61,254 nt of DNA from an uncultured virus (IMG/VR IMGVR_UViG_3300025287_000001) (Duplodnaviria > Heunggongvirae > Uroviricota > Caudoviricetes): IMG/VR virus record IMGVR_UViG_3300025287_000001; one strand, given 5' to 3'. A program made the translations under genes and the position numbers. This document shows, one piece after another, positions 8,283 through 28,991 of this stretch; position 1 is the first letter of the stretch, and each line of letters begins with the position of its first letter. The notes under the pieces were generated by a model, which was not told the DNA's origin, did no database searches, and saw only the letters and a list, made by a program, of their open reading frames with translations.

Positions 8283-8291
8283 AGTGTTTCC

Positions 8292-9922: not shown

Positions 9923-9923
9923 A

Positions 9924-10365: not shown

Positions 10366-10392
10366 TATTTGTCCTTTTTGCTTGTGGGGTTT

Positions 10393-11292: not shown

Positions 11293-11293
11293 A

Positions 11294-11557
11294 CTATTCC
11301 TCTCTTATAAACTCTTGAGACCATGGTTCTTCGGAATCAGCGAGAAGACTCGCCACTTCCTTGAGATCCATAAGTGATTTGTGTGTTGCGCGATGGGGCA
11401 ATTCCCACCACTCTACAAACCTACCCCCCTCGACCGGAAAGTCAAGCCTGAGCCACATTTTTGTAGAGGCGGGGGCCGCCCTGGAGATCCCGTCTGGTGG
11501 GTCCTGAGGGCGGCCTGAGTGTAGTGAAATGGTGACGATCGGATCGTTCTCCTTCAT
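11294..11557 (-). CDS. Hypothetical protein
   Basis: Fills the gap directly after nrdA. Confidence 0.5.
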   Translation of the reverse strand: MKENDPIVTISLHSGRPQDPPDGISRAAPASTKMWLRLDFPVEGGRFVEWWELPHRATHKSLMDLKEVASLLADSEEPWSQEFIREE

Positions 11558-11560
11558 TCT

Positions 11561-13402
11561 TCAACCTTCGCATGAGATGCAAGCCACTCCTGCCAAATCA
11601 TCGTGCCAGTCTTTAATCTCTCGACGTTGAATACTCTTGACGACATCAGGAGTGACGTTGTTTTCTGTTCTATAGTAATAGAGGCTTTTGAGTTTTCTTC
11701 CTATCATGGCCTTAAGGTGTACACTGTTAATGTAGCCAGCGTCAGACATGGGAGGGAAGAATAGGTTAACTGATTGACCCTGGCAAACGTATTGCTGTCT
11801 ATCTTCTGCGTGTTGTACAGACCAGTGCTGATCAATCTCCCAGGCAGTCTTGAATATGTCTTTCTCTTCATCTGAGAAGAAATCAATATTCTGCACAGAT
11901 CCTTTATTCACTCTTATCTGCGCCCAAATCTCTTCTGCCTGTTCATCATCTTCAGCCTTATCTCTGATTAGCTTATCGAGATATTTGTTCTCGATGAAGT
12001 GTGTACCAACCCTTGTTCTATGATTAAAGGCATTGGACGAAATAGGCTCTGTTGCTGCGGTGCAGTTACAAATAGACGAACTGTTACTATTAGGTGCGAG
12101 CGCGATCAAGTGAGAGTTCCTAAGGCCTGTGCCCTGCATATCAGGAGCCTCGCCTAACTCTTCTGCGATCTTCATTGAGGCGGCCCTGGCTTCGCGCTGT
12201 ATGTAACCGAAAATCTTGTGATTCTCTTGTACCGCTGAGTTAAACCCGCCGGACTCCCATGGTATTCCCTTTTTCATCAAATAACCGTGGAACCCCATCG
12301 CCCCCAGGCCCAGAGAACGCTCCATCACTGCGGAATAATTGGCTTTTTTCAGCCTCTCTTCGCCCGTGTTCTCGATGAAGAAAGACAGGACGTTATCCAG
12401 AAACTTCACCAAGTCTTGAATCATGGCCGTCTTACTCCAGGCGTCAAACTCTTCCAAATTAACAGATGACAAGCAGCATACAGCCGTCCTCAAGGCATTT
12501 GTTGGTAAGAATATCTCTGTGCATAGGTTGCTTCCGAATACCCTTAGCCCCTTATCTTTCATAGTCTGAGGAAGATCTTTATTCGCGACATCAATAAAAC
12601 AAAGGAAAGGTTCTCCTCTCTCTATCCTTGCTTCGCATATAATCTCCCACAAGTCTCTTGCCCTTACTGTATCCCGAACCTCCTTCGAATGAGGGCAGAC
12701 AAGATCAAACATTTCATCATACTCAACCGCTTTTACGAAATCTTCTGTAATATTCACAGCAGTATGAAACAACTTCTGGTTTGAAGCTTTCCTCTTGGGG
12801 TCTCCACCAGTAGGGATGCGAAACTTGACGTGTTCGATGATGTCAGGGTGAGACACGTCCATATAGTATGCACATGCGCCTCTCCTTACCTTTCCTTGCC
12901 TGAAGTAACCTATACAAGAATCTATAACCTTCTCAAAAGGAATCGGCCCTGGTGCCTTATCGGAGATTGCCCTGATCTGATTATGGATGCCTACCCCGCC
13001 GCCTGATACGGTAAGGGATGCCATTTCACTAATAGCATCTTTCTGGCCATCCACTGTATCAGGGGCTACCATCAAGAAACAACTTATAGGAAGATTCTTT
13101 ACTGGTTCTGTATCCCACATATCACCTACCAACTCCCCTCTCGGAGCATTGCTTAAGACTGGGGAGGCGAACATGAACCAGAGCTTCGAAGAATAGTCGT
13201 AAATTCTCTGTGCTAATTCAAAGTCATGCTTACCAGAATCGTCCACGCAATAAGCAAGCGCTGCCCTCGCAAAGGCTTCTTGAGGGCTATCTTCATCATC
13301 CCTCATGTAATAGCCCTTTAGTAGCTTCATTCCTTGTTCTGTTAGTAGCGAATCTCTCGAGTAATCAATTTCAATTGGACCGTATTTTGTTTTTCCCTTC
13401 AC
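11561..13402 (-). CDS. nrdA: Ribonucleotide reductase class I alpha subunit (short, no ATP cone)
   Basis: FASPVL, PISCF, SNLCTEI (catalytic N-C-E), VCCL, LYYYR and C-terminal CISCEG. Confidence 0.95.
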   Translation of the reverse strand: MKGKTKYGPIEIDYSRDSLLTEQGMKLLKGYYMRDDEDSPQEAFARAALAYCVDDSGKHDFELAQRIYDYSSKLWFMFASPVLSNAPRGELVGDMWDTEPVKNLPISCFLMVAPDTVDGQKDAISEMASLTVSGGGVGIHNQIRAISDKAPGPIPFEKVIDSCIGYFRQGKVRRGACAYYMDVSHPDIIEHVKFRIPTGGDPKRKASNQKLFHTAVNITEDFVKAVEYDEMFDLVCPHSKEVRDTVRARDLWEIICEARIERGEPFLCFIDVANKDLPQTMKDKGLRVFGSNLCTEIFLPTNALRTAVCCLSSVNLEEFDAWSKTAMIQDLVKFLDNVLSFFIENTGEERLKKANYSAVMERSLGLGAMGFHGYLMKKGIPWESGGFNSAVQENHKIFGYIQREARAASMKIAEELGEAPDMQGTGLRNSHLIALAPNSNSSSICNCTAATEPISSNAFNHRTRVGTHFIENKYLDKLIRDKAEDDEQAEEIWAQIRVNKGSVQNIDFFSDEEKDIFKTAWEIDQHWSVQHAEDRQQYVCQGQSVNLFFPPMSDAGYINSVHLKAMIGRKLKSLYYYRTENNVTPDVVKSIQRREIKDWHDDLAGVACISCEG

Positions 13403-14751
13403 TTATTTTTCCTGTTTTCCATTTTTTTCAACATTTCTTTAGCCATGGAAGTCTTGACAGACTTGTCTTCTATATATTCCATATCCTTTACATTGATGGT
13501 TACAGAAGAAGTATCCATGTAAATTGGGTAAACAATACCGTCCGCGCCATTTCTATTCTTCGCGACAAGAATCCTTCCATCATTGAAATTTTTATCCTCT
13601 TGTGTCCTCGCAAGAGTAATGATGAGGTCAGCAACAAAGACCTTATTGAAAGCTTCAGAGATCTCTTCAGTGGTGACAACCTCTTTGTTCATGCCGCTTC
13701 TATTCGTCTGAGATGCAGTCCAGACGGCAGCGTTAAACTGTTGACCTATTCCTCTGAGTTCCTCATAGATCGTTTCAAGATCTGATCTCTTTGTTGCTGA
13801 ATGGACCACGGGTTTTAGCAAGTCACCATAATCTACAATAATAAGATCAGGGCGAAAATCTTCCTTTTGTTTAAGCTTCTCTAGATGCTGAATTATAGTA
13901 TTCGTAGAAGCATATCTAGTGGGGTACGACTGAATCTTGAGGCTTCCCTCGACTTTCTTGATCTCATCTCTGATTTTATCCTTGTGATCCATCAAATCAT
14001 TTAACTTGATCCCGGTGATGCAAGAATCATATCTTTGCGCAACAGCAGTAGGAAGAAGCTCCAGTGTGTAGTGCACAACATTCTTCCCGTTCTTGATGGC
14101 TTCTGCACCAAGGTGAACCAAGAACATGCTCTTACCAGCGCCAGAGGGCGCGATTACAACTCCTAATTCTCCTCTACCAAGGCCACCTTGTGTTATCCTG
14201 TTTATGATAGGCCATCCTGTTACAACAGGATTTCTAGATATTGCCTCGAATCTTACATCGAAATCAGCAATATAATCGTAAGCAGTTGTCTTCTCATCTC
14301 CGGCGTTAACAGCCTTGGAGATTGTGTTCATCAAGGCTTCATAATTCTCGCTCTCGATATGAGATAGGCCCTTCATGACAGCACCAACAACTTTCTGGTG
14401 CCTGCAAAATGCTATCGCAGTATCCTTTTCGTACTCTACATCTACATCTTCAGACCTCATTCTTTCTACTTTAGAAAGCAAGGCCATAATAGACGCTTTT
14501 GTGGTATCACTCTCTGAAGATGTCTCGTTTATAAGCACCGTTCTAAAGGTAGAAAGAGATGGGTGAGATCCGTAGTTGTTCTTGTAGTTCAAGAGATACA
14601 TGGCAAATTGCTTTGCTGGTTCTTGCGTGAAGAACTCCAATTCGAGCACTTCTGAGATTCTATCGCAAAAAACCCTATCTGTGGCCATGCCATAAATTAA
14701 GTTATTCTCAAACGTTCTATCGTACTTGGAGAAGTTTTTCTTATCTGTCAT
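13399..14751 (-). CDS. Replicative DnaB-like helicase (T4 gp41-like)
   Basis: APSGAGKS Walker A, TLE, IVDY, TASQTNR and KNRNG. Confidence 0.92.
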   Translation of the reverse strand: MTDKKNFSKYDRTFENNLIYGMATDRVFCDRISEVLELEFFTQEPAKQFAMYLLNYKNNYGSHPSLSTFRTVLINETSSESDTTKASIMALLSKVERMRSEDVDVEYEKDTAIAFCRHQKVVGAVMKGLSHIESENYEALMNTISKAVNAGDEKTTAYDYIADFDVRFEAISRNPVVTGWPIINRITQGGLGRGELGVVIAPSGAGKSMFLVHLGAEAIKNGKNVVHYTLELLPTAVAQRYDSCITGIKLNDLMDHKDKIRDEIKKVEGSLKIQSYPTRYASTNTIIQHLEKLKQKEDFRPDLIIVDYGDLLKPVVHSATKRSDLETIYEELRGIGQQFNAAVWTASQTNRSGMNKEVVTTEEISEAFNKVFVADLIITLARTQEDKNFNDGRILVAKNRNGADGIVYPIYMDTSSVTINVKDMEYIEDKSVKTSMAKEMLKKMENRKNK

Positions 14752-15722
14752 TTTAGCACTCTTGTACTGAATCTCTTTAGGAATCCTGATAATTCATATA
14801 AATCATCTACAATGCCATCTTTAAACCTCTCGGCATCAAAGAGCATCTTGTTGTAACTCTGTGAAAAGTTAGACAACTGATGTACGATCTTACCTTTTGT
14901 CTGAGGCGAGATAGATGGAGAGTATAGCTGCATTACTGCATAGTTATCGGCAATAATATCGCGACCTTCTAGAACCTTACCGTAGACTTTCTTTTTCGAT
15001 TTTGTCTCTTTGCATTCGGTAAAGATATCCTCTAGCAACATATCAGGATCTTTTATCTTCTCGAAACTCTTGGCGACCGTCTTCAAGCCTACTCTATTGA
15101 TGCCTGGGAGGTTGTCTGATGAGTCTCCCGCTATCGCACGTGCAGCAGCCAGATTTTGAGGATGGATGCCGTACTCTTCAATAACTTTGTCTCTATCGTA
15201 TATCGTATCATCTATAGGGCGATAAAGTTTTATTCTATCTGTGCACAACTGTAGAAAGTCTTTATCGTTAGAGACTATAAGAGCTTCTTCCTCGATGTTC
15301 TGAGCGACATAAGAAATGATATCATCTGCTTCTATCTTATCAAACATCAATTGAGGTATAGAAGTCTTATTGAGGTACTCGTGCAACCTAATCTGCTGCC
15401 AAAGTTTATTCTCCTCTTGCTCTCTATTCGACATCTCGGGGATGTTTGTGTTCATCTTCACTGGCTTCCTTCCCTTCTTGTAAGAAGAAACCCTGTTTCT
15501 GCGCTTCTGTGAGCCTCCTGCGCCGTCCCAGCAAATAATGCAATAATCTGGTTGGTGATCTCTAAAGAGCTTCTGTAGCGACCTCAGGAAGCCTCTCAGG
15601 CCACCTATCGGAGTGCCGTTAGGATTTTGTGATGGGTTGACCACAAATGCCCTCAAGTATAAGTTGAGGGCATCTATGATCATGATCTTACCTTGTTCAT
15701 TATCATGATTGGTTAACTTCAC
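14748..15722 (-). CDS. 5'-3' exonuclease / flap endonuclease (T4 RNase H / Pol I N-terminal type)
   Basis: IIDALN, WDG, YKKGR, EADD, SNDKDFLQ and GDSSDNLPGI..VGLKT. Confidence 0.93.
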   Translation of the reverse strand: MKLTNHDNEQGKIMIIDALNLYLRAFVVNPSQNPNGTPIGGLRGFLRSLQKLFRDHQPDYCIICWDGAGGSQKRRNRVSSYKKGRKPVKMNTNIPEMSNREQEENKLWQQIRLHEYLNKTSIPQLMFDKIEADDIISYVAQNIEEEALIVSNDKDFLQLCTDRIKLYRPIDDTIYDRDKVIEEYGIHPQNLAAARAIAGDSSDNLPGINRVGLKTVAKSFEKIKDPDMLLEDIFTECKETKSKKKVYGKVLEGRDIIADNYAVMQLYSPSISPQTKGKIVHQLSNFSQSYNKMLFDAERFKDGIVDDLYELSGFLKRFSTRVLK

Positions 15723-16822
15723 TTACTATCTGTCCCTTCGTCCTGGGTTAGCATTTTATGAGCTTTCTCATAACTGTAGTTTTTGATGTAAGAATCCTTG
15801 AGCATGTCTTTAGCAACCATTCTTACATCCTCCCTCTCTCTACAGAGTTTCTTCCAATCCGCCGTCCTGAATTTGAAATCAGGTTCGTCATAGAGAGGGA
15901 AAACTCGCCAAGAGCCTCGGGTTTCAATAATCCCTGCGTTCAAGAGCGCGAGGAACCAAGATTCTTCATCAAGGATACCAACTTCTTCATCGCCCCATGC
16001 GATTTGAAATTCACACCTTCTTCCTTCGGTGCCGAACCTTGACTTCTTTATCTCGGCTCTTACAGTAGATCCCATCTTTAAACCATCATCATCATATAAG
16101 AATGATTTTTTGGCAAAAGGCTTGGTAAGCCATACTCTCATGCTGTATGCATAAGCAAGAGACTTTCCGCCAGGGGTGATATATTGATCCTCCCACGGCC
16201 TAGCGCCTATGTTCGTCCTCAACTGATTGATTACCAAGAGAGTAGACTGGGAATTAGCCATCGGGATAACAAGCTTCTTCATAGCACCCGCGTTAATCCT
16301 CGCGGCAAGCGCGATAGACGAAGTTGGGTTAAAGTCATCTGCCTCTACTTGGTGGCCTGTGGCCGTATTAGCATAAGAATCCCACACAAAGAAATATTTA
16401 TTACCATCTTCAAGCAAGGTGTTGATTACAGTAAACACGAGTTCAATAGTCTCAGCTTGAACATAAATCATCTCTTTTGTGTTTACACCGAGATTCTTCA
16501 AGTGCTTATTAGAAAGAGACGATTCTGAGTCAAAGTACACACCCGTGTACCCCGCTTTCTGCGCCTCTCCCAGGGCGAGGGCTGCCAGGAAGGACTTTCC
16601 AGTACCTTCCAAGCCTGCTAGCTCGCAAATCTTGCCAATCGGCCAACCTCCTATGTCTTCCTTGTTCGTGTTGCAATCCAGAATGAAAGAACCAGACCTA
16701 ATCCATTCGTAAACCTCAGTTGGGCAATCCTCATCTTCGAGGTCCCATACTAACTTTTTACCGATCGTCTTGTTTAGTTTCTTTCTTAGTGCTTCTACGT
16801 TTACTTTACCTTTTTCTGTCAT
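15719..16822 (-). CDS. recA: RecA/UvsX recombinase
   Basis: GLEGTGKS Walker A, FDSE, VWDS, INQLR.NIG and TPGG. Confidence 0.92.
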   Translation of the reverse strand: MTEKGKVNVEALRKKLNKTIGKKLVWDLEDEDCPTEVYEWIRSGSFILDCNTNKEDIGGWPIGKICELAGLEGTGKSFLAALALGEAQKAGYTGVYFDSESSLSNKHLKNLGVNTKEMIYVQAETIELVFTVINTLLEDGNKYFFVWDSYANTATGHQVEADDFNPTSSIALAARINAGAMKKLVIPMANSQSTLLVINQLRTNIGARPWEDQYITPGGKSLAYAYSMRVWLTKPFAKKSFLYDDDGLKMGSTVRAEIKKSRFGTEGRRCEFQIAWGDEEVGILDEESWFLALLNAGIIETRGSWRVFPLYDEPDFKFRTADWKKLCREREDVRMVAKDMLKDSYIKNYSYEKAHKMLTQDEGTDSK

Positions 16823-16829
16823 CTATTCC

Positions 16830-17783
16830 TCAGAAAAACTTTGATTCACCGATTGCTTGGTCGAGAGCCGCAGCAGGATCTTCCTCGTCCTCTGCTTTTG
16901 CAGCATCTCTTACGTCATCTACTGTAAATTCGTCCTTATCTGCGAGGCTTTTCTCTTCCTCGGTAGATCCTGCTCCATATGAGACCTGCTCAGTAAAGGC
17001 ATCCTCACCTAACTTCTCAACCATCACTTCTTGGAGCGACTCTTCAATTGATTCGATAGAGTTAATGTACATGACTTCTTCTACGAAATCAGGGTAAGTG
17101 TTGTCTTCCAGCCACTGATCAATCTCTTCTTCTGTGGCATCGGGCAAGAGAGGGCTGTCATTTCTCGACGCAGTTACAGAGTAAGTGCAGGATAGCGACT
17201 GGTGCGGAATCCTTTTGTAGATAACATCTGTGCCGTTGTGAGGATCAGTGATATCACCATACTCTTCGTTAAGAAGAATATCTTGCACGATTGACTGATA
17301 TACTGTCTGAGAGAAATCCCAAATCTGAATGCCCTGGTCTTCCTGGCCTCTTACGATAACAGCAGCGTAGTACCTTGTTCGAGGGAAGAGACTCTTTGCA
17401 ATCTCTCGCATCTCTTCGATCTCCTTCTTCTTTGCTTCCAAGAGCTTTTCATCTCTCGGGGGAGCAATATCGAGAAGCTCTTCCTGCTCGTTAATCTGAT
17501 CCCACATCGCACCCCTCAGATCGCAGATAGGGCAACTACCCTCAGAGTGCGAGTTCGTATCATGACACCAGATACCCCAATACTTATCTGATAGCCTATG
17601 CTTACTAAAGTCCTTCAGTGGCATTCCATCTGGAGATGGTAAGATTCTGAGCTTTACCGTGCTGTGCATCGGCTTGGGGACGTTAACGAAACCAAACTTT
17701 CGTCGGCTTGATGATCCAGTGTTTGTGCTTGCTGCAAGTTGCTTTTTGAGTGCTTCTAAGTCAATTCCCATTTCTTTTCTCAC
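16830..17783 (-). CDS. Single-stranded DNA-binding protein (T4 gp32-like)
   Basis: LRILP, C..CPIC zinc site, RYYAAVIVR, YGDITDP..G.D and an acidic C-terminal tail. Confidence 0.85.
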   Translation of the reverse strand: MRKEMGIDLEALKKQLAASTNTGSSSRRKFGFVNVPKPMHSTVKLRILPSPDGMPLKDFSKHRLSDKYWGIWCHDTNSHSEGSCPICDLRGAMWDQINEQEELLDIAPPRDEKLLEAKKKEIEEMREIAKSLFPRTRYYAAVIVRGQEDQGIQIWDFSQTVYQSIVQDILLNEEYGDITDPHNGTDVIYKRIPHQSLSCTYSVTASRNDSPLLPDATEEEIDQWLEDNTYPDFVEEVMYINSIESIEESLQEVMVEKLGEDAFTEQVSYGAGSTEEEKSLADKDEFTVDDVRDAAKAEDEEDPAAALDQAIGESKFF

Positions 17784-18592
17784 TTTACTTTTTGTGGATT
17801 GTTACTACTCACCAAACACATAACGAGATCTTCATCATGAGGTGATAAATAAACTTTGTAACTGTTTGCTATTTGTTGTTTGTTGTTCTCTTTCGAGAAG
17901 GCTTTTATGTTACCCAGAACATCTTTGTTGTTCTTGAGCGTATTTTCGGAAAGATAGTAGTAAGAATTAATCTCTATCGCGTCGCCAAGATCATAAAACA
18001 TTCTTAGTGAAGTGCTGTCAAGTCTCTTTTGGGCAAATGTTCCGATTCTGGCCGTATTGTAACTTCCGCCGAATGACTCCGTGACTGTATCCTGGCCTGG
18101 GAGATAATGCAAGAGATAAAAATAGTATGCTACCATTCTCGCGACATTATTTTCGTAATCCATGAGCCCGGTATCTGGCAGGCAATTCTGCCATACTATT
18201 TCCGGGTCGTAAATGATCATTTTCGAAAACTTCCCAGATCTAGCGTATTCCTTCAGGACTCCAAAAGTCAACTGCTCGATTTGCTTAGACTTTGGAATCA
18301 TCCCATCGGGATTTCTCCTACAGTAAATCAGGTATAATTCGCTGTCAACCAGTTTCTCCGCCAATTTCAGGGTAACGCCAGAAATATCAGTACCGGCATT
18401 AACAAGAATAGTTATCTTATCGCCTTTTAATATTTCCTCGGGAACGTCCAAATCCAAGTCATTATATTCTTTATGAGAGTTCATGTGAGGTATAAAGGAC
18501 TTTGTATCGTGCATCTCCCATTTGTTGTTAGAGATGGTAACGAGGCTCTTCCCAAGTTTGTTCATCTTGGGTCCAAGCGGCAATATAATCAT
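17780..18592 (-). CDS. Degenerate tubulin/FtsZ-superfamily-like protein
   Basis: IILPLGPKMNKLG (cf. T1 IGVGGAGGN) and VNAGTDISG (cf. T4 GGGTGSG), with Rossmann-like strand/helix spacing. Confidence 0.5.
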   Translation of the reverse strand: MIILPLGPKMNKLGKSLVTISNNKWEMHDTKSFIPHMNSHKEYNDLDLDVPEEILKGDKITILVNAGTDISGVTLKLAEKLVDSELYLIYCRRNPDGMIPKSKQIEQLTFGVLKEYARSGKFSKMIIYDPEIVWQNCLPDTGLMDYENNVARMVAYYFYLLHYLPGQDTVTESFGGSYNTARIGTFAQKRLDSTSLRMFYDLGDAIEINSYYYLSENTLKNNKDVLGNIKAFSKENNKQQIANSYKVYLSPHDEDLVMCLVSSNNPQKVK

Positions 18593-19659
18593 TTCAATCC
18601 CTTCTTCTGCATTTCAAACATATTTTTGCCGTATGATACGTTAACAGGGAAATCTCCAAATATAGTTGATTTATAAGTTTTTATCATATCTGCAACAATG
18701 TCTATATCATTCTTTGAAAGATCCACAATAATGCTGTCATGAATAGTGCAGGATACAAAACTCTCTTTGTCCTTCAGTAAATCATGAACATTCATTGCCG
18801 ACCTCAACGCTATTTCTGAGCTTGTGCTCTGAACCAAGTGACTAACTCTCATGCCTTTCGAAGGCTTCAGCCTTCTTCCGAAAGGTGTAACAACTTCTTC
18901 GCCCTGTCCTGAGAAGTTGTTAGTTATGTCACGAGGGTAGTACTCTGCCTCTTGCCAATAAGGTGCCCTGGTGCCGTAAAGCCAAGACATGATTCCCTTT
19001 TTGGCCTGGTTTCTGGTCATGTCTTTGCCGAATACATTCTTTATATTCCAATCGTGAACATCTCCCCTAGGTTGCTCCTTACCGCTCAATCCCAAATATG
19101 TCCTTATATCGGCAGCGTTGAAATCAATCTCTAGGAAGAAATCGTTTCTTGGCAGTATATCAACTCTATCTTCTTTCCTTAGTGTCAATATAGGAAAGCT
19201 ATCCCTCGATGTCGTGAATCTTCCCGTTACCGTTCCATCAATTTTATAATGAATGTAGGGATAATCATTAATGAGGTTCCCGCCTAGTCTTAGCTTGTTT
19301 TTGGAAATATCATCAACGAAGTTGAACAACCTCTTATAATAAGTTGGGTCATGTCTTTCATTGTCTTTAGTGAGCTGCTCCTTGATAAACTTGCCCCTGA
19401 AAGCGAACACACGCTCCATAGAGGACTCGTGGAGCTTTTCAAGGTCTACCAAGTGCATTGGGATTTTGCAGGCCTTATACGCCTTTCTGTGGACTTCTAG
19501 GATATCCTCGATTTTAGGATGTTCTAATTTGTAATAATACTCTAGGCAGTTGCCTGAGCTTTTATCATGGAATGTAATGCCGTTAATGTTCTCTAGGTCT
19601 AATTCTATATCGTTGGTGTATATTCTTCCTTCGTATGAAAACCAATCTCTAACTGGCAT
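18589..19659 (-). CDS. Compact family-A DNA polymerase palm/fingers domain protein
   Basis: TVTGRFTT, motif A DFNAADIR, motif B RNQAKKGIMSWLYG, VQSTSSE and motif C IHDS. Only 356 aa. Confidence 0.85.
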   Translation of the reverse strand: MPVRDWFSYEGRIYTNDIELDLENINGITFHDKSSGNCLEYYYKLEHPKIEDILEVHRKAYKACKIPMHLVDLEKLHESSMERVFAFRGKFIKEQLTKDNERHDPTYYKRLFNFVDDISKNKLRLGGNLINDYPYIHYKIDGTVTGRFTTSRDSFPILTLRKEDRVDILPRNDFFLEIDFNAADIRTYLGLSGKEQPRGDVHDWNIKNVFGKDMTRNQAKKGIMSWLYGTRAPYWQEAEYYPRDITNNFSGQGEEVVTPFGRRLKPSKGMRVSHLVQSTSSEIALRSAMNVHDLLKDKESFVSCTIHDSIIVDLSKNDIDIVADMIKTYKSTIFGDFPVNVSYGKNMFEMQKKGLK

Positions 19660-19666
19660 ACTGTCC

Positions 19667-20782
19667 TCATAGGATTCTTTTCTCTAGGTAATCCAAAGCT
19701 GCGACAGGATTCCCCGAATTAGCAATTCTCATAGTAGACTCCAAGATCGCCTCAGGTTCCTCGCACAACCTCTCTCTTCTCTCCGACAGTCTTATCCTAG
19801 CTGTCAGTTCGAGCCATAGATTAGGAGGGAATTTCTCGTTTATCAAGTCAAAATCGGGAATTTTTCTCGAAACTCCATAACTTTTTGTACTCTCTGAGCA
19901 AATTTTGTACTTCGTGAAAGATGCCGATTCTGAGATGTAGTTAATATACGAGTTGATGCACATCCACTTTATATTCTGAGGTTCTGCATGATGAGGATAA
20001 TAGAAGAACTTTGCGTGAAACTCATCCAAACTAGAGACGCTGTACCTCTTTAGTAATTCTTTAGGGAAGGACGCATCAGCTTGAAACGCAACTGACATTG
20101 GTGCGTGCTTGTAGGCCTGAAATCCATACCTAGCCATAGCATCTTGGAAGATGTAATAATTTGGATTTTGAAGCATGTTTTTTGATTTGTAGAAATCATC
20201 ATCATTACTATAATCGTGAAAGCTCACGAACATAGAGCTTGCATGCACCCTCTTCGAAGATTTAAACGCATATTCTGTTTTCGTGACAGGCCTTCTTTTG
20301 GAATACAGAACCATAAAATCTGAAAACAAATCATAAAAGCTATCAAAATCTCTTATGAGTTTCTCTTCGTCTCTTGTCTTGATAAATGACTTAAAGCTTT
20401 CATACAGCTTCTCTATCTCAGAAGAATAACTCTGCTCTATTCTTTCATAGCCACTCTTTACGTCGAGAGAGGTAATCGCGTAAGGGGCACTTGAGGCTTT
20501 TCCTTTAACGATAACAGTGTTAAAGAATCTTATAGCTTGCTCTAAACAATCAGCCACGGGGGAGATTAGCGAGCATTCTCCAAACGCCTCTGGGAGTGTT
20601 CTTATCGTGGATTCCTTGGGCAATAAAGTGAAGCCGTTTTTGTCGAGTCCTATGCTCTCTAGATCATCTATAAGAGGATATGGCATATCCTGAAAAGCGT
20701 TATCTGAATATTTCTTCCTCTCTTTAAACAAATCCTTGCTTCCGAGAGAGTTATTTCCTCGGTACACCATAACCATCATCAA
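19667..20782 (-). CDS. Hypothetical protein (possible degenerate M15 peptidase-like fold) at the end of the baseplate module
   Basis: VADCLEQ...VKSGYE..EQ and ARYGF segments. Confidence 0.55.
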   Translation of the reverse strand: MMMVMVYRGNNSLGSKDLFKERKKYSDNAFQDMPYPLIDDLESIGLDKNGFTLLPKESTIRTLPEAFGECSLISPVADCLEQAIRFFNTVIVKGKASSAPYAITSLDVKSGYERIEQSYSSEIEKLYESFKSFIKTRDEEKLIRDFDSFYDLFSDFMVLYSKRRPVTKTEYAFKSSKRVHASSMFVSFHDYSNDDDFYKSKNMLQNPNYYIFQDAMARYGFQAYKHAPMSVAFQADASFPKELLKRYSVSSLDEFHAKFFYYPHHAEPQNIKWMCINSYINYISESASFTKYKICSESTKSYGVSRKIPDFDLINEKFPPNLWLELTARIRLSERRERLCEEPEAILESTMRIANSGNPVAALDYLEKRIL

Positions 20783-23228
20783 CCTCTATTTGATTAAGTT
20801 TTCTTCTAGACACCTTGTTCCCGTCTGACTGCCAGACGCCTTTTGCAGAGACCTCGTAATCGTTCCTCGTGAGTTCCCCAGATACATTAACGAGCATGTA
20901 ATAACCCCCCAGGCCAAGGGTCCTCGCAGTCTCTGACACTTCTTCTCTACTCCTAGAGCCAAGAGTATTCGGGTCTATGTAGATATATTGCCCAGGCTGA
21001 ACAAAAGGGTTTCCGTATAACTCAAGATTCGCGTCATACTTCTCTTGGAAATACGTGAAGATATCGGGGAATCTATCATCTTGCTCTGCTGCCCTCTGTA
21101 TTCTTGCCTCTCTCGCGTAAGGTTGATCACTTCTAGAAAAGTTAATATTTCTTACAAGACCCCTGTCCTCACCTATCCTGTAAGTGTAGATTCCTCTCTC
21201 TTCATCGTTTAACTGTCCCTTTGATCTGTCCCTGACGAGATTAGAGAACTCAGTTAAAGAGGCAAAGAGAAACACATAATTGAATGGCGTTATATCTGCT
21301 CGAAGTCTCTCAAGCTCTCCTATCGTGTTTATCGACCTAATGTTGTTTTCCTTCAAGTCTCTATCCGTAACCCTGGCTAGTCCATAGCTGGAGAGTCTCC
21401 CGTTGTTGGTGGACTTCCCAGTCAGCTTATCAATGCCATTGTCTGTACCTGATAAGATATTCATATTGACTCTTGCCTGAGTGTAAAACTTGGCACCTGT
21501 TGTTCGGGCGTTGAGCATTCTTCCTATGAGGTCTGTTATTACGTCTCTTATGAATATCTTTATAGGGTAGGTGGTTCTGTTGCTCTTGACTATCTTGTCT
21601 ACCAAGTAGACTACAAACATGTTCACAGATACAGGAATATCAGAAAGATTATAAGACGCCTCAATGAATCTATCCTCAATCCCTTTGGCGCTATCATCTT
21701 TTCTGAAGAACTGTATAGGCCCAACAACAGGCCTTACTTCACCTCCGTTAGTAATTGATAACTCTTCATCGAATAGTATATCAAATACAATATTGAGCAA
21801 GTCTCCAAAGAAGAAATAGCTTATTTTAATATCGTTCTTTGCCCCAAAGATAATCTCATCTGCTCCAAACCTATCATTTACTGCATCGCTAAAGTTTAGG
21901 ATGGAATCTACATCGTTACTATCTTGGTAAGTCTTTAGGTCTCCTGTTATTCTCTTTGAAAGTCGATCTCCCGAAAATGCCCTTTGAACCGACCCTATCT
22001 GATACAAATCTCTTATCGAAGAATTTGCCTGCTTCTTTATGATATCATCTTTTGCCTCATCATTAATGTTATCAGGCAATTGATACTTTCTTGATACAGA
22101 TAGCGTATACACTCGATTGTTATCAAGCATTTTTTGTATCAAGGCACCATGCAAAGCTCTTCTTCCTGCTGTTAGTTGTAATCTCTTCTCTTCCTTGACC
22201 TCTTCTAGGTCTTTTTCGGGATTCTTCCTTTTAATTCTTTTCTTTGTCTCCTCCGATCCATAGGAACTAATTGACTCTTCAAGGTTCGTAATCTTTTCGT
22301 TATATTTTGCCCTGAGGTCTTTTAGGTTTTGGGCTTTGTCTCTAGAGAGCATGAAAACATCGCTCTTGGGGTTTGTCAGTATCCCCTCTATGCACGCGCT
22401 ATATTCCAAGGTGATCTCAACGCTACCATCTTGCTCATACTTTATATCGTGGCCTATAAGGGTAAGATACATCCCTATAGAGTTATTCTTTACGGCGTTG
22501 ATAATAGTGTTCACCCCAAAATCAAACCCATTGCTAAAATTTCCTAACGGGTCTGAGTTAAGCTTGCTCGCTTCCTCTCTTAGTAAATCAAGTGATTCAT
22601 CTGTAGGCGTAGCATATCCTATGATCGCAAACATCTTAAATTCATTATTGCCAGGATCTTTTGGCCTCTTTACGGTTTGCAAAACCAAATCACTATATTG
22701 GTACTCTATCTCTTTGTCCGTGCCGCTTAACTTCTTTGTCCTTACTTTCGTGAAAGACTCGATAGATCTCATGCTTAGAACTAATTCAGCAGTAACATTG
22801 TTCTTGACTTGCGAATAATCAGTTGCGTTATAGTTGTAGGAAAACCTCTGAACATTGACAGCATCAATCGTCGTTGCCCTCCCTTCTAGTATATCCTCCA
22901 GACTTTTCTCAGAAACAGAATCATCAAACACCATCTCTACAGGCGTATCCCTGCCAGACCTTGGATCTTTCTTCATGACGAATAATCTTATCCTGGGGAC
23001 AAGTAGGGATAAAATGGAAGGTGGCAACTTCGTAAGCACCGCTGCCGAAGGATTCCCAGTTACCCTGGATATAAATTCATATGGCTTACTTGTCTCGACC
23101 TGAACGAAGTTAGAGTAGACAATCTCATCCTGTCCTGATGATTTTATAATCTCATCAATATAAGAGAGCAGTATAGACTGCTCTCTTTCTCTCACTTCTT
23201 CTGAGAATCTTTGTGCTTCAGTTGACAT
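20751..23228 (-). CDS. Baseplate hub / tail protein (gp27/gpD-like)
   Basis: Lies after the LysM-like gene. C-terminal LYGNPFVQPGQYIYI...GGYYMLVNVS hub signature. Confidence 0.65.
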   Translation of the reverse strand: MSTEAQRFSEEVREREQSILLSYIDEIIKSSGQDEIVYSNFVQVETSKPYEFISRVTGNPSAAVLTKLPPSILSLLVPRIRLFVMKKDPRSGRDTPVEMVFDDSVSEKSLEDILEGRATTIDAVNVQRFSYNYNATDYSQVKNNVTAELVLSMRSIESFTKVRTKKLSGTDKEIEYQYSDLVLQTVKRPKDPGNNEFKMFAIIGYATPTDESLDLLREEASKLNSDPLGNFSNGFDFGVNTIINAVKNNSIGMYLTLIGHDIKYEQDGSVEITLEYSACIEGILTNPKSDVFMLSRDKAQNLKDLRAKYNEKITNLEESISSYGSEETKKRIKRKNPEKDLEEVKEEKRLQLTAGRRALHGALIQKMLDNNRVYTLSVSRKYQLPDNINDEAKDDIIKKQANSSIRDLYQIGSVQRAFSGDRLSKRITGDLKTYQDSNDVDSILNFSDAVNDRFGADEIIFGAKNDIKISYFFFGDLLNIVFDILFDEELSITNGGEVRPVVGPIQFFRKDDSAKGIEDRFIEASYNLSDIPVSVNMFVVYLVDKIVKSNRTTYPIKIFIRDVITDLIGRMLNARTTGAKFYTQARVNMNILSGTDNGIDKLTGKSTNNGRLSSYGLARVTDRDLKENNIRSINTIGELERLRADITPFNYVFLFASLTEFSNLVRDRSKGQLNDEERGIYTYRIGEDRGLVRNINFSRSDQPYAREARIQRAAEQDDRFPDIFTYFQEKYDANLELYGNPFVQPGQYIYIDPNTLGSRSREEVSETARTLGLGGYYMLVNVSGELTRNDYEVSAKGVWQSDGNKVSRRKLNQIEVDDGYGVPRK

Positions 23229-23572
23229 TATCCGACATCCCTTAAGATATTAAGAACGCTGCTAAGAGGAAATGGGACGAGCACCTCTGTCCCTATGGCA
23301 ACGTGATGATCTGTTGGTAGCAAGTTATACCAAGCTATGACCCACCATAACTCAGGATCTCCGTATAGTCTAGCAGATATTTTCCAAAAGGCCTCTTCTC
23401 TGGACCAGATTACAGGAATCTCGTTAAACGATATATTATCCTCTGGTTGTATATGCTGCATACTGGGACTCTTATACTGCCTTACGAAGTTTATTCTTCT
23501 CTCTCGAAAGATGTTCTTGTACCTTTCGTCCTTGTTGATCGCTATAAGCCTATCTTCATATCTTGACGCCAT
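23228..23572 (-). CDS. LysM-like baseplate protein (gp53/gpX-like)
   Basis: FWKISARLYGDPELWWVIAWYN...IGTEVLVP. Confidence 0.8.
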   Translation of the reverse strand: MASRYEDRLIAINKDERYKNIFRERRINFVRQYKSPSMQHIQPEDNISFNEIPVIWSREEAFWKISARLYGDPELWWVIAWYNLLPTDHHVAIGTEVLVPFPLSSVLNILRDVG

Positions 23573-23574
23573 AC

Positions 23575-24456
23575 TCAGACCCCTGTTATATTTCTCGCAA
23601 TTTTATTATTACTTCTCTTGTTCACTTCTCTTTTTCTACTAGGCGCTGCTTCTTGTAGTTCCCTGAGGCGATCCTTCTGTCTTTGATTTAGCGTACCCCC
23701 CGTCGAGGCATCGCTAATGATAGTAAGGTCTGTGGCCTCCTCCGAGAAGCCATCCTGAGCATTGATCCTTCCTTCATCTGATATCAAGTCAGCGTCAACC
23801 CTTCTTTCGTTTTTGATATCGTAAGGGAAGCCCTGCCTCTTGAATCTTGTTTTATCGTGGCCAAGGGAGTGTTGATGGTTAACATCAAAGGTTAACGATA
23901 TAGTGAACTCCTTGAAGAATAAATGATCTTCAATCTCGAACATTCCCATATCAATATTAGGCTCTACATCAAAAGAAGTTATCATGCCAAGTAAGCCACC
24001 ATCTTTAGCAGTCTTCGCTCTTGGCCTGTTAGAATCCATGATTAGATTTGCAAACTTTAACTTCATAAGAGGAGAGGTAGATATCGTATTCGAGTTACCA
24101 ATAAACTCACCCAATGTCTTATCATACCCAGGGTAGAGAAATTGTATCAACCTATTTAGTCGATCCATATTAGCTATAGCGTCAACTTCAGACACAGACG
24201 GCACAACCCAGGAAATGTTCTCAGATCTGGAGGTTCCGCCATAATGTAGAACAGGGTCCATTCTGCCATATGATTTCTTCTTATCTACATCTATATCATA
24301 ATTTGGCTTGTAGTTCTTTAGCATTGCCTTAAAGGTAACGCTATCACCAGAAGGGAGGTGGAAGAAGTCTAGCACAAACCCAGTAGCATTTGCCATAAGA
24401 TCTGTTTCAGTAGATATCCCCCTATCAAATATAAACCTAAAGTCGTCTTCTTCCAT
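23575..24456 (-). CDS. Tail tube initiator / baseplate-tube protein (gp48/gp54-like)
   Basis: YGRMDPV..Y.GT.R..ISW, L...LYP.Y and PLMKLKFANLI; canonical position after the tape measure. Confidence 0.65.
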   Translation of the reverse strand: MEEDDFRFIFDRGISTETDLMANATGFVLDFFHLPSGDSVTFKAMLKNYKPNYDIDVDKKKSYGRMDPVLHYGGTSRSENISWVVPSVSEVDAIANMDRLNRLIQFLYPGYDKTLGEFIGNSNTISTSPLMKLKFANLIMDSNRPRAKTAKDGGLLGMITSFDVEPNIDMGMFEIEDHLFFKEFTISLTFDVNHQHSLGHDKTRFKRQGFPYDIKNERRVDADLISDEGRINAQDGFSEEATDLTIISDASTGGTLNQRQKDRLRELQEAAPSRKREVNKRSNNKIARNITGV

Positions 24457-24462
24457 CTCTCT

Positions 24463-25947
24463 TTATTCCTTCTCTTTGGTTGTTACGTTGTAAAATTTCT
24501 TATCGAACCTAGGGAACTCACCCTGGAGTAAGTAAGCGCCGAAAATTTCTTCAAGGATAGTGTTACCGGAAAAGCCCTTAATCCCTATGGAGAAATCTTC
24601 CATACCTCTCCAATTTGGCCAAAATGAAGAATCTTGCTTTTGTCTTATCTCAAGATGACGGAAAACATCATGAAACAATTGCTGGAACATTGATGACTTT
24701 TCCGCATCAGATATATCCTCTGGTGCTTGTTTTCCTAGTAATTTTGCAATATCACTAATCAGATATCTGGCCTCATCGGTAAAGTTCGAATTAGGGATAT
24801 AATCTTGCATTATTCTGTACCCGTGGCCTGGGTCCAACTCCAGTTCTTTCTTCGAATATATGATCATTGCCAAATATTGCATGATATTATCAAAGCCTAT
24901 TGAATCTGGATCATCTGCTCTCGAAGATTTGTATCCTTCCTTTGCCTTATCAAGTTCATCTATGACACCCTGCAAACTATTCACTGCCTTGATGAAGTAA
25001 GATAAATCATAATCTAGATCAGGATTATTGGGGTCTCCCATCTTTGCCTTTTGCACAAAGTTCTTTATCTCCATCTCCTTGTCCCTCCCTGAGAATGGAG
25101 ATAAGCGCTTCGATACATCAGATATAACTTGAAGTATTGTGCCAGTTCTCTTGTTGAGGCTCCCCAGAAACCCCCCAGACTTGCTTAACTTGGTTTTGAA
25201 ATTCTTTAAAAGGTTTGGCACCAAACTTAAATAATTCAGTTGTCTTCGCGTTAACTCTAGATCTGTGACCTCAGCATTATCGCCAAAATCAAAACGTATT
25301 ATATCTCTTAATTTATCAAAATGGCTCGGATTGATAACCGCCTTCAAGACTTCAAGATATTTGTCTCCTATAGTTCTTTTCATAATAGTAGAAGCAATGT
25401 GTGCTATGTCCTCTACTTCTATATCCAGTCCTTTTTCCTTCATTTGACTTATTCTGCTATAAAAAGCTTTATCTCTCCCTTCTAGCACTTCCACAATATC
25501 AACTTCATGAAGAAGCAGCGCCTTTAGTATATTCTCCTCTAAAGAGTCACTTATAATGCCATCTTCCACTGCACACATGGAGAAAGCTTTTGCGAACTCG
25601 ATAAACATTAAAACAACAGCCCTTCCATTGACATCAAGAGAATTATATTCCCCTATAAAGAAGGTCTTGTCGATCTGAAGACCTTCTTGCCTGCCTAAGA
25701 TGCCCAATAATTCCTCAGCAGTTATCTCTTCCGCCAGCCTGGGGTAGTTGCCTTCTCCAGATTCAACTCCAAACTCCCTTAACAAGTTTGGAGATATTAT
25801 AGAAGAGTCAACGTGAAACGTGCTCTGGGAAGGCATGATTATGGAGTCTTTTGAATCTATTCTAAAAATGGTCTCGAAAAACTCTTTGCAATCAACGTTT
25901 TCTGCGCTTATGCCCTCTAGTTCTTTGGCATATTGTCTTTTATTCAC
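24463..25947 (-). CDS. Hypothetical protein in tail module
   Basis: 494-aa ORF. GTG start with AGGAG. Confidence 0.65.
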   Translation of the reverse strand: MNKRQYAKELEGISAENVDCKEFFETIFRIDSKDSIIMPSQSTFHVDSSIISPNLLREFGVESGEGNYPRLAEEITAEELLGILGRQEGLQIDKTFFIGEYNSLDVNGRAVVLMFIEFAKAFSMCAVEDGIISDSLEENILKALLLHEVDIVEVLEGRDKAFYSRISQMKEKGLDIEVEDIAHIASTIMKRTIGDKYLEVLKAVINPSHFDKLRDIIRFDFGDNAEVTDLELTRRQLNYLSLVPNLLKNFKTKLSKSGGFLGSLNKRTGTILQVISDVSKRLSPFSGRDKEMEIKNFVQKAKMGDPNNPDLDYDLSYFIKAVNSLQGVIDELDKAKEGYKSSRADDPDSIGFDNIMQYLAMIIYSKKELELDPGHGYRIMQDYIPNSNFTDEARYLISDIAKLLGKQAPEDISDAEKSSMFQQLFHDVFRHLEIRQKQDSSFWPNWRGMEDFSIGIKGFSGNTILEEIFGAYLLQGEFPRFDKKFYNVTTKEKE

Positions 25948-25949
25948 TC

Positions 25950-28757
25950 TTAACTCCTATCGGGGTTATTTCTCTTATTTATATTATCCACCACGACCTC
26001 TGTCATCTTTTTCCCGTCAAGCTCAAGTCTTATTATCGTGGGCGCATCAGAGGACGAAGCGACTCTATCAAGGGTCGTGTTCTTTTCAAATCTAGAATAA
26101 AATTCTTTCCTCTCTCGCGTAGAAGCGGATGTCCTTGACCGCATCTCCGAGTTTACATTGTTTATCTTGTCAACTGTCTCTGTATTCTTTGTCTCCAAGT
26201 TTTCTTTGGACTTGGAAACTTCTTTAGAGATTGTATTATTACTCTCTATAGAATCATTTGCCGCCTTTATTATCTTATCTGCGCCCTTGTTGATGCTCAT
26301 TGCAAGCTCACTTTCCGGCATCAATTCAGATAGAGATTTCAAACCTCTAGCCACAGTCTTGATAAAGATCCAAAACATATTTTCTAGATTTGTCACAAAC
26401 GAAGAGAAATACTCTAATGCTTGATCGAATCCTCCTCCTGTAAATAGAGTAAAGAACCCCATAAGCAGGTTTGTTGACGCCGAAATGCCCTCAATGATCG
26501 CAGAGAATATCCCAACGACAGTATGAAGTGTACCCACCAAAGACTTTGCTATGACTTTTGCTGCTAGCGATATAATAGAAGTAAGAATATCAAGGGCCAC
26601 CCCCAAGACTCCTGACGACTCTCCTGTAATGCCAATAACATCTATCAGGGGGGAGAAAGCTTCTCGTAGTGTGTTTATAGCAGGCTCTAGGTCCTTGTAA
26701 ATATCATCTTTTACCTTATTAAACTCTTTGGATATTTCGTCAAAAACCATCGACAGGAATGACACTACTGTTATAAGTGCACCTAGCGGTGGCATTAGTA
26801 TGGATATAGCTATGCCAGCTTTCATCATCGCCTGCGCTACACTATCACCAGCTTTTCTAAAGTGATTAAAGAGCTTGGTTACGATCATTAGTGACACAGC
26901 CATTCCTGCTATTACACCAGCCACAGCGAGAGCAGGGGCAAGGATACCAGCAAACGCAAGAGCACCAACGGCACCAGCAATGGCAAGAGCGGGGATTAGC
27001 TTGCCATCGAAGCTGTTATTTATTTCCAAGACTGTATCGAGTATATCATTAAGCGTCTCTACAACAGGGGCTACGCTCACGGCGAAGGCTTGCCATAGTG
27101 CAGATAGCTTATCAGACAAGGTAACAGCAGATCTCGAAGCAGCCTCTATCTCTTCTGTGGACACCCCAAGAACATTCAGCGTTGCCTGATACTCTCCAAC
27201 TTCTTGCGAGAGAGTACCAAATAACTTATTAAGCTCGGATATATCTGTAATGCCAATAGCAGCACCGATATTCATCCTCTCGAACTTATTCATATTCTCA
27301 TATTCAAGGCCAGAAAGTCTCATGGCTTCTTGGATCATTTTTATCCTTTCGCCTTCTGTGGCGAGCATTGCCTCAGTGGCGTTTAGATAAGAGCCCCCTA
27401 GAGCCGCTGAGAGCCTCCCTGCGGCCTCTGCTGCCCCGTCAAAGGTGTCGAATTGGTCAACGATCCCGAGAAGCTCCTGCGTGGTCAGGGAGGTCGCCTT
27501 GGCGGCTGCCGCAACCTCTTCGAATACTTCGACTGCCTTTCTGCCGTAAGCGGCTAGTTTTGGTTGAGCATCTATGAATCCTTGTACCATTTTTTCCACT
27601 GGAAGTTCAAGAGACTTGGCCACCTTTACTAATCTAACAGAAACATTCTTCGCCTCTACAAACGACATCTGGAGTGATGATACGAGGTGGTCGAACATTC
27701 TAGCTGTGTCATCTGTACTGACCCCTAGATTCTCCATCGTCTTCGTGAAACCAATAATGTCTGTCTTATTTGCAATCTTGGAGAATGACGCAACCTGAGT
27801 ATAGAGAGAAATAAAGCCCTCTGCTGCATCTCGCACTGAGCCCCCCATAGACATCATATGGGTATTGCTTTGTTCTAGTACTCCTATCATTTCTCTGCTG
27901 TTACCTGTTAACCTTGCAACCATGGCAGAGGCTTCATCAAGCTCTGTTATCATTCTTGTAGTAGCAGCAATAAACGCTCCTGCAATAACAGCAGAAACGC
28001 CCATCAGTATAGCTTTATGATTAACGAGTATTTTATTTAATCTATCTACGCCGCTATTGAGGACCTTAACAGGGTTGCTCTGGATGGCCTTCATAAACTT
28101 GGCGGCACTCTTACCAGAGTCTAGCAGGCCATCCCCGGCAAAACCTATCTTGCTAAGAAAACCTGAAGTCGCATCCTCCAATCCTTCCATGGCCTCTTCG
28201 GCCAGTTCCATGCCTACAATAGAGGCCTTGGTCTCTGTGTTAAACTTATCAACTGCATCCTTTAGTTTAAGAAGCCTTTCTTCTTGTCCATCGAGGGCCT
28301 CATTTAAGGCTGAGATCTCAGATTCTTTCTCCTTGATGATCTCTAAAGTCTCTTCGTTGCCATCGTGACTGTCTTTTAGTGCCTGAACCTCTCTTTTCAG
28401 AAGTTCTATTCTATCCTTGGCATTGTTATCAATATTTTCATATTCTTTCTTGAGCTTTATGATAGCAGATAGTTCTTTTCTTGCCTTCGATATCTCTTTT
28501 TGCGTACTGTCAAATATACGCATGTAATCAGTAGCACCAGGGCTTTGCTGGTTATATAATTCTATCTCTTTGTTGATAGTAGAGATACTTTTCAGCATGG
28601 TCTCCAGGGATTCCGAGCTATTTTCAAAAGCATTGATAGTCTTGATATCGGAGAATGTCTTCCTTGTCTTACCTGATATCTTATAGAGCTTTTCCATGCC
28701 TTCAAGCATAGCCTCTATATCTTCTTTTGTAGCTGGTTTTTGGTTATCTTCTGCCAT
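25950..28757 (-). CDS. Tape measure protein
   Basis: 935 aa, Ala-rich and helical, with coiled coil and hydrophobic segments. Follows the tube and chaperone genes; C-terminal LELDGK. Confidence 0.85.
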   Translation of the reverse strand: MAEDNQKPATKEDIEAMLEGMEKLYKISGKTRKTFSDIKTINAFENSSESLETMLKSISTINKEIELYNQQSPGATDYMRIFDSTQKEISKARKELSAIIKLKKEYENIDNNAKDRIELLKREVQALKDSHDGNEETLEIIKEKESEISALNEALDGQEERLLKLKDAVDKFNTETKASIVGMELAEEAMEGLEDATSGFLSKIGFAGDGLLDSGKSAAKFMKAIQSNPVKVLNSGVDRLNKILVNHKAILMGVSAVIAGAFIAATTRMITELDEASAMVARLTGNSREMIGVLEQSNTHMMSMGGSVRDAAEGFISLYTQVASFSKIANKTDIIGFTKTMENLGVSTDDTARMFDHLVSSLQMSFVEAKNVSVRLVKVAKSLELPVEKMVQGFIDAQPKLAAYGRKAVEVFEEVAAAAKATSLTTQELLGIVDQFDTFDGAAEAAGRLSAALGGSYLNATEAMLATEGERIKMIQEAMRLSGLEYENMNKFERMNIGAAIGITDISELNKLFGTLSQEVGEYQATLNVLGVSTEEIEAASRSAVTLSDKLSALWQAFAVSVAPVVETLNDILDTVLEINNSFDGKLIPALAIAGAVGALAFAGILAPALAVAGVIAGMAVSLMIVTKLFNHFRKAGDSVAQAMMKAGIAISILMPPLGALITVVSFLSMVFDEISKEFNKVKDDIYKDLEPAINTLREAFSPLIDVIGITGESSGVLGVALDILTSIISLAAKVIAKSLVGTLHTVVGIFSAIIEGISASTNLLMGFFTLFTGGGFDQALEYFSSFVTNLENMFWIFIKTVARGLKSLSELMPESELAMSINKGADKIIKAANDSIESNNTISKEVSKSKENLETKNTETVDKINNVNSEMRSRTSASTRERKEFYSRFEKNTTLDRVASSSDAPTIIRLELDGKKMTEVVVDNINKRNNPDRS

Positions 28758-28770
28758 ATTAAAGTCTCAA

Positions 28771-28800: not shown

Positions 28801-28801
28801 T

Positions 28802-28981: not shown

Positions 28982-28991
28982 GTATATAGAA

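Follow-up and report, generated by a model that had tools for sequence, protein, structure and literature searches.

A divergent family A DNA polymerase of the divPolA1 type, lacking a proofreading domain, heads a conserved replication-recombination operon of an uncultured phage

Our analysis concerns a small family A DNA polymerase (PolA) gene on a 61,254-nucleotide stretch of DNA from an uncultured tailed virus (IMG/VR record IMGVR_UViG_3300025287_000001; the whole stretch is called the window below). The gene (Table 1) does not encode a new kind of enzyme: its product is a divergent representative of divPolA1, a family already described from immuto-like aquatic myophages. It is predicted to be a family A DNA polymerase that copies DNA templates with an intact catalytic site, and it has no proofreading domain and only a short helical N-terminal part. 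We infer, with a probability of roughly 55%, that it serves as an accessory, Pol I-like polymerase in gap filling and recombination. An earlier note on this DNA had described a miniature PolA with an altered steric gate and RNA polymerase-like motifs, possibly working in gap filling, in priming or with ribonucleotides (rNTPs). What it read from the letters holds, while the special class of enzyme that it saw in them is not supported.

Single profiles recognize the 356-aa protein only in part: its sole Pfam match is DNA_pol_A (PF00476), which covers residues 272–329 and, with 23.6 bits, stays below the cut-off of 34.3, and PHROG 17, annotated as "DNA polymerase", matches with E 5.6e-10. Among 1211 candidates, 37 homologous proteins of 290–406 aa scored E <= 1e-3, and 36 of these, without one fragment of 290 aa, make up the family alignment A1. 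When the A1 profile was compared with the PDB, 72 distinct sequences were matched at E <= 1, with Klentaq as the best one (E 2e-11). In this alignment the TGR motif falls on TGR, DFNAAELR on DYSQIELR and HDS on HDE, and the R..K...F...Y pattern of the family's motif B falls on RRAAKTINFGVLY. Because the motifs are in register with Klentaq, the residue assignments at the discriminating sites can be relied upon. Through the family profile, Ala183 corresponds to I614 of Taq, Asp184 to E615, Met224 to F667, Tyr228 to Y671 and Ser309 to E786, while the catalytic D179 is matched with D610 and H307-D308 with H784-D785. In Klenow numbering, which is used from here on, we take the same five sites to be I709, E710, F762, Y766 and E883. 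The motif strings DFNAADIR, RNQAKKGIMSWLYG and IHDS are thus present as the earlier note had read them, and its placing of Asp at E710, Ala at I709 and Met at F762 was correct.

All 20 columns that are invariant in A1 are kept in the window protein, including TGR, D179, R216, K220, Y228 and Q277, and H307 and D308, which occupy near-invariant columns, are kept as well. Compared with the family consensus, its N-terminus lacks about 40 residues, only about 110 residues precede the palm, and about 31 residues found in Taq after motif B are absent. An identical polymerase protein occurs on 14 contigs, and the nearest record is an 18-kb fragment with an identical polymerase gene.

An AlphaFold (AF2) model computed from the 36-row alignment reached a pLDDT (predicted local distance difference test) of 77.6, with values of 83–97 in palm and fingers and below 50 in residues 1–43. 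Foldseek matched the model to Bst polymerase, Klentaq, Pol nu and Klenow with a probability of 1.00. VIA-align aligned it to 996 chains, and the following results come from the best 50 of these 996. Pol nu is nominally the best match (Z 23.8, root-mean-square deviation 2.8, 296 aligned residues), closely followed by the POL domain of Mycobacterium smegmatis Pol1 (Z 23.6) and Klentaq (Z 23.4); Pol theta scores Z 22.1–22.5 and Klenow Z 21.9. Since the margin of Pol nu over Pol I is below one Z unit, this ranking does not discriminate between them; Pol nu, the Pol1 POL domain, Klentaq, Bst and Klenow together span Z 21.8–23.8 with 273–331 aligned residues. A Pol I-type palm, fingers and thumb cover the model from residue 1 or 39 to about residue 352.

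The Klenow alignment pairs model residues 39..351 with Klenow 462..928 and hence starts at residue 462, and the Pfam and PHROG scans found no match of the polymerase to a 3′-5′ exonuclease family; we therefore conclude that the protein carries no 3′-5′ exonuclease domain. Together with the open reading frame (ORF), this bears out the polymerase-only architecture put forward in the earlier note. In the neighbouring genes of the polymerase, a 3′-5′ exonuclease domain was not found either.

The family was named divPolA1 by Yutin et al. (2024), who found it in 14 immuto-like phages with genomes of 155–190 kb and described a truncated thumb, the lack of an active exonuclease and conserved replication genes downstream (PMC11348598). 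In a tblastn search of a phage collection, the window polymerase matched only the four records of Flavobacterium phage immuto (E 5e-4, with 61% of the query aligned at 24.8% identity), and megablast with positions 14000–24000 of the window found no match in this collection. In a profile comparison, hhalign aligned A1 with the 441-aa small PolA of immuto over 281 columns (probability 98.1, E 7e-14). Moreover, in immuto the 441-aa "DNA polymerase family A" is followed by two short ORFs and then by genes for a single-stranded DNA-binding protein (SSB), a recombinase, a 5′-3′ exonuclease, DnaB and ribonucleotide reductase (RNR). The window has the same order downstream of its polymerase, namely gp32, UvsX, flap endonuclease (FEN), DnaB and RNR, so that in both phages a divergent PolA without an exonuclease domain stands first in the series.

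The size of the genome fits as well. On a metagenome contig of 630,638 bp, a polymerase gene encoding the identical protein occurs three times, 185,127 and 185,083 bases apart. From this spacing we estimate a genome of about 185.1 kb and regard the contig as a concatemer-like assembly of about 3.4 genome units. This value lies inside the range published for divPolA1 phages (PMC11348598). Profile homology to immuto, identical synteny and genome size together place the window gene in divPolA1. It is nevertheless a distant member, since its protein shares only 23–25% identity with that of immuto and is 356 instead of 441 aa long. The small PolA of immuto (1..1326 of its locus) has His at the gate (DFDGYHLR) and YDA in motif C according to hhalign, where the window protein has Asp and HDS, so that variation of the active site is still greater when the wider family is considered. 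In total, we count at least 540 IMG/VR loci of the divPolA1 type. Among cluster representatives 7350 match at E <= 1e-3 and 352 at E <= 1e-30, the weaker matches surely including other PolAs.

How unusual the active-site residues are can be judged from 186 proteins aligned to the family hidden Markov model with hmmalign, comprising the 37 homologs and the 150 best representatives with one shared protein (P0001) counted once, and from the 86 nearest environmental loci (79 from IMG/VR and 7 from metagenomes, identical copies excluded). Ala at the I709 site is found in 153 of the 186 proteins and in 77 of the 86 loci. Ser at the E883 site is found in 135 proteins (otherwise Ala 17, Asn 8, Glu 7, Cys 6, Asp 1, gap 12) and in 72 loci. 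Both are family-wide traits, and they suggest a roomier and less accurate active site. According to a review, substitutions of Taq I614 lower fidelity, and replacement of E615 by Asp keeps activity, a statement that concerns activity and not the choice of sugar. At the Y766 site, Tyr is kept almost throughout (179 proteins; Phe 6, gap 1).

The two other residues are private to the fast-evolving window lineage. At the steric gate, 156 of the 186 proteins have Glu, 27 Asp, two His and one Gln. At the F762 site the residues are Phe (155), Leu (10), Ile (7), Met (4), Tyr (4), Trp (3) and Thr (2), with one gap, and so Phe, Leu or Tyr in 169 proteins. All 86 nearest loci have Glu at the gate and either Phe (84) or Leu (2) at the F762 site. 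Three of the four representatives with Met also have Asp at the gate, and the full combination of Ala-Asp at 709/710, Met762 and Ser883 occurs in two of the 186 proteins, the window protein and one other. Homologs thus mostly keep the ordinary residues at both sites, Glu and Phe/Tyr/Leu, which is the outcome that the earlier note itself had named as speaking against its reading, and its suggestion that Asp and Met mark an rNTP-tolerant or RNA polymerase-like class is not supported by this comparison.

How these residues came and went is shown by a FastTree phylogeny, for which the trait columns were taken out and the 20 rows shorter than 340 aa were left aside, so that 166 rows remained. The 27 rows with Asp at the gate need 24 changes on the tree, at least eight of which are forced by well-supported (starred) branches, and 120 of 500 shuffles of the labels gave values as low. 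Since the supported Glu/Asp changes are this many and clustering is no better than with shuffled labels, the switching looks like near-neutral toggling. Met at the F762 site needs four changes. The window protein forms the longest end branch of the tree (1.59 compared to a median of 0.79).

A second sign that the window phage is a divergent outlier comes from the gene directly downstream of the polymerase, whose 270-aa product had no Pfam or PHROG match. Its AF2 model is of high confidence (pLDDT 94.5), and all 49 matches listed by Foldseek are FtsZ, TubZ or CetZ (best E 1.6e-9, TMq 0.65–0.68). In 76 loci, a complete homologous ORF follows closely after the polymerase gene, at a distance of no more than about 3 kb. 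It is not detectable in immuto, which has two short unrelated ORFs at the place where the window and these 76 other loci carry the FtsZ-fold gene. We aligned 40 copies, the one of the window and those of 39 loci, after dropping a row with a stop codon. The family has two Gly-rich loops. In the first, GLGxAGC, Gly is present in 38–39 of the 40 rows at each of three positions, and the second is GxGxISG-like. Of the three Gly residues in the first loop, two are missing from the window copy, as is one Gly of the second loop, and it is this degeneration of the nucleotide-binding loops that sets the phage apart again. The longest polymerase branch and a downstream gene that is also the odd one out point to general fast divergence of the phage. 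The paper that described divPolA1 names neither tubulin nor FtsZ in its main text (PMC11348598), and the work listed by one literature search was of the PhuZ/TubZ type only. A complex prediction for the polymerase and the FtsZ-fold protein (score 0.00, mark 0.32) gave no verdict either way.

For the role of the polymerase it matters which other polymerases these phages encode. We scanned five large records of relatives, those of immuto and of four IMG/VR phages, and found a second polymerase in four of them. Three carry a DnaE-type Pol III alpha subunit of 1140–1162 aa, about 13–14 kb from the small PolA, and immuto carries a full-length PolA of 778 aa with a 3′-5′ exonuclease domain. The remaining record, in which neither was found, has a completeness of 46%. 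PolB (PF00136) and RNase_T (PF00929) were matched in none of the five records, and PF01612 only in the large PolA of immuto. In the 61-kb window itself no second polymerase, including DnaE, was found. A regular DNA polymerase of family A, B or C accompanies divPolA1 in all 14 genomes studied by Yutin et al. (PMC11348598), and that it is retained while its family is swapped suggests that divPolA1 cannot replace its function. The expectation of the earlier note that the small PolA is unlikely to be the sole polymerase agrees with both sets of genomes.

We therefore consider an accessory role the most likely one, because an enzyme that would probably be distributive and error-prone would make a poor sole replicase for 185 kb and because the regular DNA polymerase is kept. 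In such a role, divPolA1 would fill gaps and extend 3′ ends during Okazaki-fragment maturation together with the flap nuclease, and it may also extend 3′ ends in recombination-dependent synthesis with UvsX and gp32, while a separate regular polymerase elsewhere in the genome would carry out the bulk of proofread synthesis. The 5′-3′ exonuclease, which the earlier note had proposed as the partner in a split Pol I, is real (Table 1). Its gene lies third after the polymerase gene in the conserved operon, so that the two enzymes could plausibly divide the work in the manner of Pol I. Several points weigh against this assignment. That the polymerase binds or cooperates with the flap nuclease is suggested by gene order only. 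The second polymerase is known only from relatives, the window being 61 of about 185 kb, and one of the five relatives' records, though incomplete, showed none. The first 43 residues of the model are of low confidence, and the window protein taken alone stays under the Pfam cut-off. Furthermore, the paper that named the family infers an involvement of divPolA1 in replication from the same genomic context and calls the functionality of the regular DNA polymerase "less obvious" (PMC11348598).

This last view leads to the most serious alternative, which we consider possible at about half the weight of the accessory role or somewhat less: divPolA1 could be the main replicative polymerase, acting with DnaB, primase and gp32, and the regular enzyme could be used for repair or another task. 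The polymerase does head the only conserved replication operon, its family is abundant and conserved, as the counts of loci and close cluster representatives given above illustrate, and the regular DNA polymerases are found in variable, functionally mixed neighbourhoods, from which the naming paper concludes that divPolA1 takes part in replication (PMC11348598). A replicase of a genome of about 185 kb would, however, have to do without proofreading, since the protein has no such domain and scans of the four IMG/VR relatives with PF00929 and PF01612 revealed no separate DEDD exonuclease gene. Yutin et al. describe the thumb as truncated (PMC11348598), and relatives retain a regular DNA polymerase despite the swaps between families A, B and C. 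At the other extreme, the gene might encode a degenerating or non-catalytic homolog that is kept as a structural component or regulator of the replication complex. The longest branch, the shortened N-terminus and the sub-threshold Pfam score could be taken in this sense, but the invariant catalytic and nucleotide-binding residues are all intact, palm and fingers are confidently modelled and the identical protein recurs on 14 contigs, so that we regard this as very improbable.

That the window variant tolerates rNTPs or synthesizes RNA, with Ala-Asp at 709/710, Met762 and Ser883 opening the sugar pocket and mimicking T7 RNA polymerase, appears unlikely to us, although the likeness that suggested it is genuine. 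T7 RNA polymerase, as read from the T7 genome (NC_001604), has RSVTKRSVMTLAYG at residues 627–640 and IHDS at 810–813, just as the earlier note had quoted them, and the window protein shares with it the Met at the F762-equivalent site, the Tyr-Gly that ends motif B and the HDS of motif C. In addition, engineered Taq variants that accept rNTPs are altered at the steric-gate Glu and its neighbour, Asp at the gate accompanies Met762 in three of four representatives, and the exchange E615D in Taq may raise the use of rNTPs. Yet the gate residue of those variants is Gly, and T7 RNA polymerase also has Gly (Gly542, five residues past the motif A aspartate D537, the correspondence to Asp184 being drawn from this offset), whereas Asp is a conservative change that keeps the carboxylate. 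Glu at the gate in every one of the nearest loci and in most representatives, the unclustered toggling between Glu and Asp, and the general fast divergence seen in the long branch and the odd neighbouring gene all speak against a new specificity. The Tyr at Y766 is kept. In the structural comparison, the best 50 of the 996 chains were DNA polymerases, without a single RNA polymerase among them. T7 RNA polymerase is moreover a protein of 883 aa with an N-terminal domain and promoter-recognition parts, none of which are present in the 356 aa of the window protein. As a DnaG-type primase is encoded in the window, the priming role considered in the earlier note is not needed either. It would be similarly surprising if the enzyme were a natural PolA of relaxed sugar selectivity that could use rNTPs or mixed pools for primer extension, as might help early in infection if dNTPs are in short supply, and if divPolA1 polymerases in addition formed a replication-organizing pair, of a kind so far undescribed, with the translationally coupled FtsZ-fold protein.

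The accessory, Pol I-like assignment can also be set against known relatives of the enzyme. With the polymerase domains of bacterial Pol I (Klenow, Klentaq, Bst and M. smegmatis Pol1) the window protein shares the fold (Z 21.8–23.6) and the TGR motif and motifs A, B, 6 and C in register, and a flap nuclease is present alongside, here as a separate gene in the same operon. It differs from them in that, apart from a few N-terminal helices, nothing of a 3′-5′ exonuclease domain is present, be it active or vestigial, and in having Ala for Ile709, Asp for Glu710, Met for Phe762 and Ser for Glu883. Human Pol nu and Pol theta are likewise family A repair polymerases deficient in proofreading, with structural scores in the same range, but the 356-aa model shows no sign of their inserts and vestigial exonuclease domain. 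Family A genes without a 3′-5′ exonuclease domain are also known from the split T7-like PolA of S-SBP1-like phages and from CCPol (PMC10201439). In S-SBP1 the exonuclease domain is a neighbouring gene whose product is predicted to re-associate with the polymerase (Czernecki et al. 2023, PMC10201439). The window polymerase is instead flanked by the 371-aa protein and the FtsZ-fold protein, and no exonuclease gene of this kind was found with PF00929 or PF01612 in the four IMG/VR relatives. The divPolA1-type family is not described in the sections covered of this 2023 reclassification of PolA (PMC10201439).

The remaining gene content of the window is that of a tailed phage. All 64 ORFs taken as likely genes in positions 1..61254 lie on the minus strand, and the GC skew is negative throughout. 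Virion genes encode terminase, portal, protease, major head protein, sheath, tube, baseplate hub and tape measure, and genes for replication and nucleotide metabolism encode primase, RuvC, a fused SbcCD, RNR and thymidylate synthase. That virion genes of the T4-like type occur together with a family A polymerase, which the earlier note had found odd, is the published norm for the divPolA1 phage group (PMC11348598). The conserved operon headed by the polymerase continues with the genes for the FtsZ-fold protein, gp32-like SSB, UvsX, 5′-3′ flap nuclease and DnaB. In tblastn searches of 92 related loci, gp32 was detected in 73, UvsX in 56, FEN in 39 and DnaB in 28, these counts being limited by the ends of the loci. 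The ATG of the polymerase gene lies 7 nt past the stop codon of the upstream gene. The 371-aa product of this upstream gene had tblastn matches in 14 of the 92 loci, again upstream of the polymerase. We considered it as a detached N-terminal or exonuclease domain and rejected this idea, as it has no family match and relatives encode its homologs, which are 374–715 aa long, in genes of their own. Two further ORFs on the minus strand may be recorded here. The 1046-aa product of ORF 54063..57203 combines an SbcD-like nuclease (residues 1–349) with an SbcC-like ATPase (residues 277–1044) and is thus a fused Mre11/Rad50-type protein, and the 101-aa product of ORF 5775..6080, which lies among small genes beside nucleotide-metabolism genes, matches Peptidase_S24 (LexA/UmuD-type) with E 9.1e-6.

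Table 1. Positions in the window of the polymerase gene, its motifs and the genes discussed with it.
Feature	Position	Strand	Remarks
divPolA1-type family A DNA polymerase, polymerase domain only	18589..19659	-	open ORF, 356 aa
TGR motif (T145, G146, R147)	19219..19227	-	invariant columns in A1; aligned to Taq TGR
Motif A DFNAADIR, residues 179-186 (catalytic D179; Ala183; Asp184)	19102..19125	-	family alignment
Motif B RNQAKKGIMSWLYG, residues 216-229 (R216, K220, Met224, Y228)	18973..19014	-	family alignment
Motif C IHDS, residues 306-309 (H307, catalytic D308, Ser309)	18733..18744	-	family alignment
FtsZ/tubulin-fold protein, 270 aa	17780..18592	-	start overlaps polymerase stop (ATGA), translationally coupled
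gp32-like ssDNA-binding protein	16830..17783	-	PF08804 E 1.6e-11; phrog_1192
UvsX/RecA-type recombinase	15719..16822	-	PF00154 E 1.2e-31; phrog_97 E 3.9e-52
5′-3′ exonuclease / flap endonuclease	14748..15722	-	PF02739 E 1.6e-34; PF01367 E 5.6e-9
DnaB-like replicative helicase	13399..14751	-	PF03796 E 3.3e-17; phrog_19 E 2.4e-70
Upstream 371-aa protein, no family match	19667..20782	-	weakly conserved position
DnaG-type primase	57200..58141	-	phrog_47 E 2e-39

Overall, we suggest that the gene be annotated as a divPolA1-type accessory DNA polymerase, and neither as the replicase of the phage nor as an RNA polymerase. The window adds to the family a very divergent divPolA1 with natural changes at positions that enzyme engineers have altered, namely the steric gate, its neighbour and the site that discriminates against dideoxynucleotides, and this makes the protein a convenient natural variant for tests of sugar selectivity. 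More generally, our comparison brings out a puzzle in phage replication: in hundreds of large aquatic phages, a stripped-down, non-proofreading PolA at the head of a replication-recombination operon is kept beside another DNA polymerase that has been swapped between families A, B and C, and the question that these phages pose is why both are kept.

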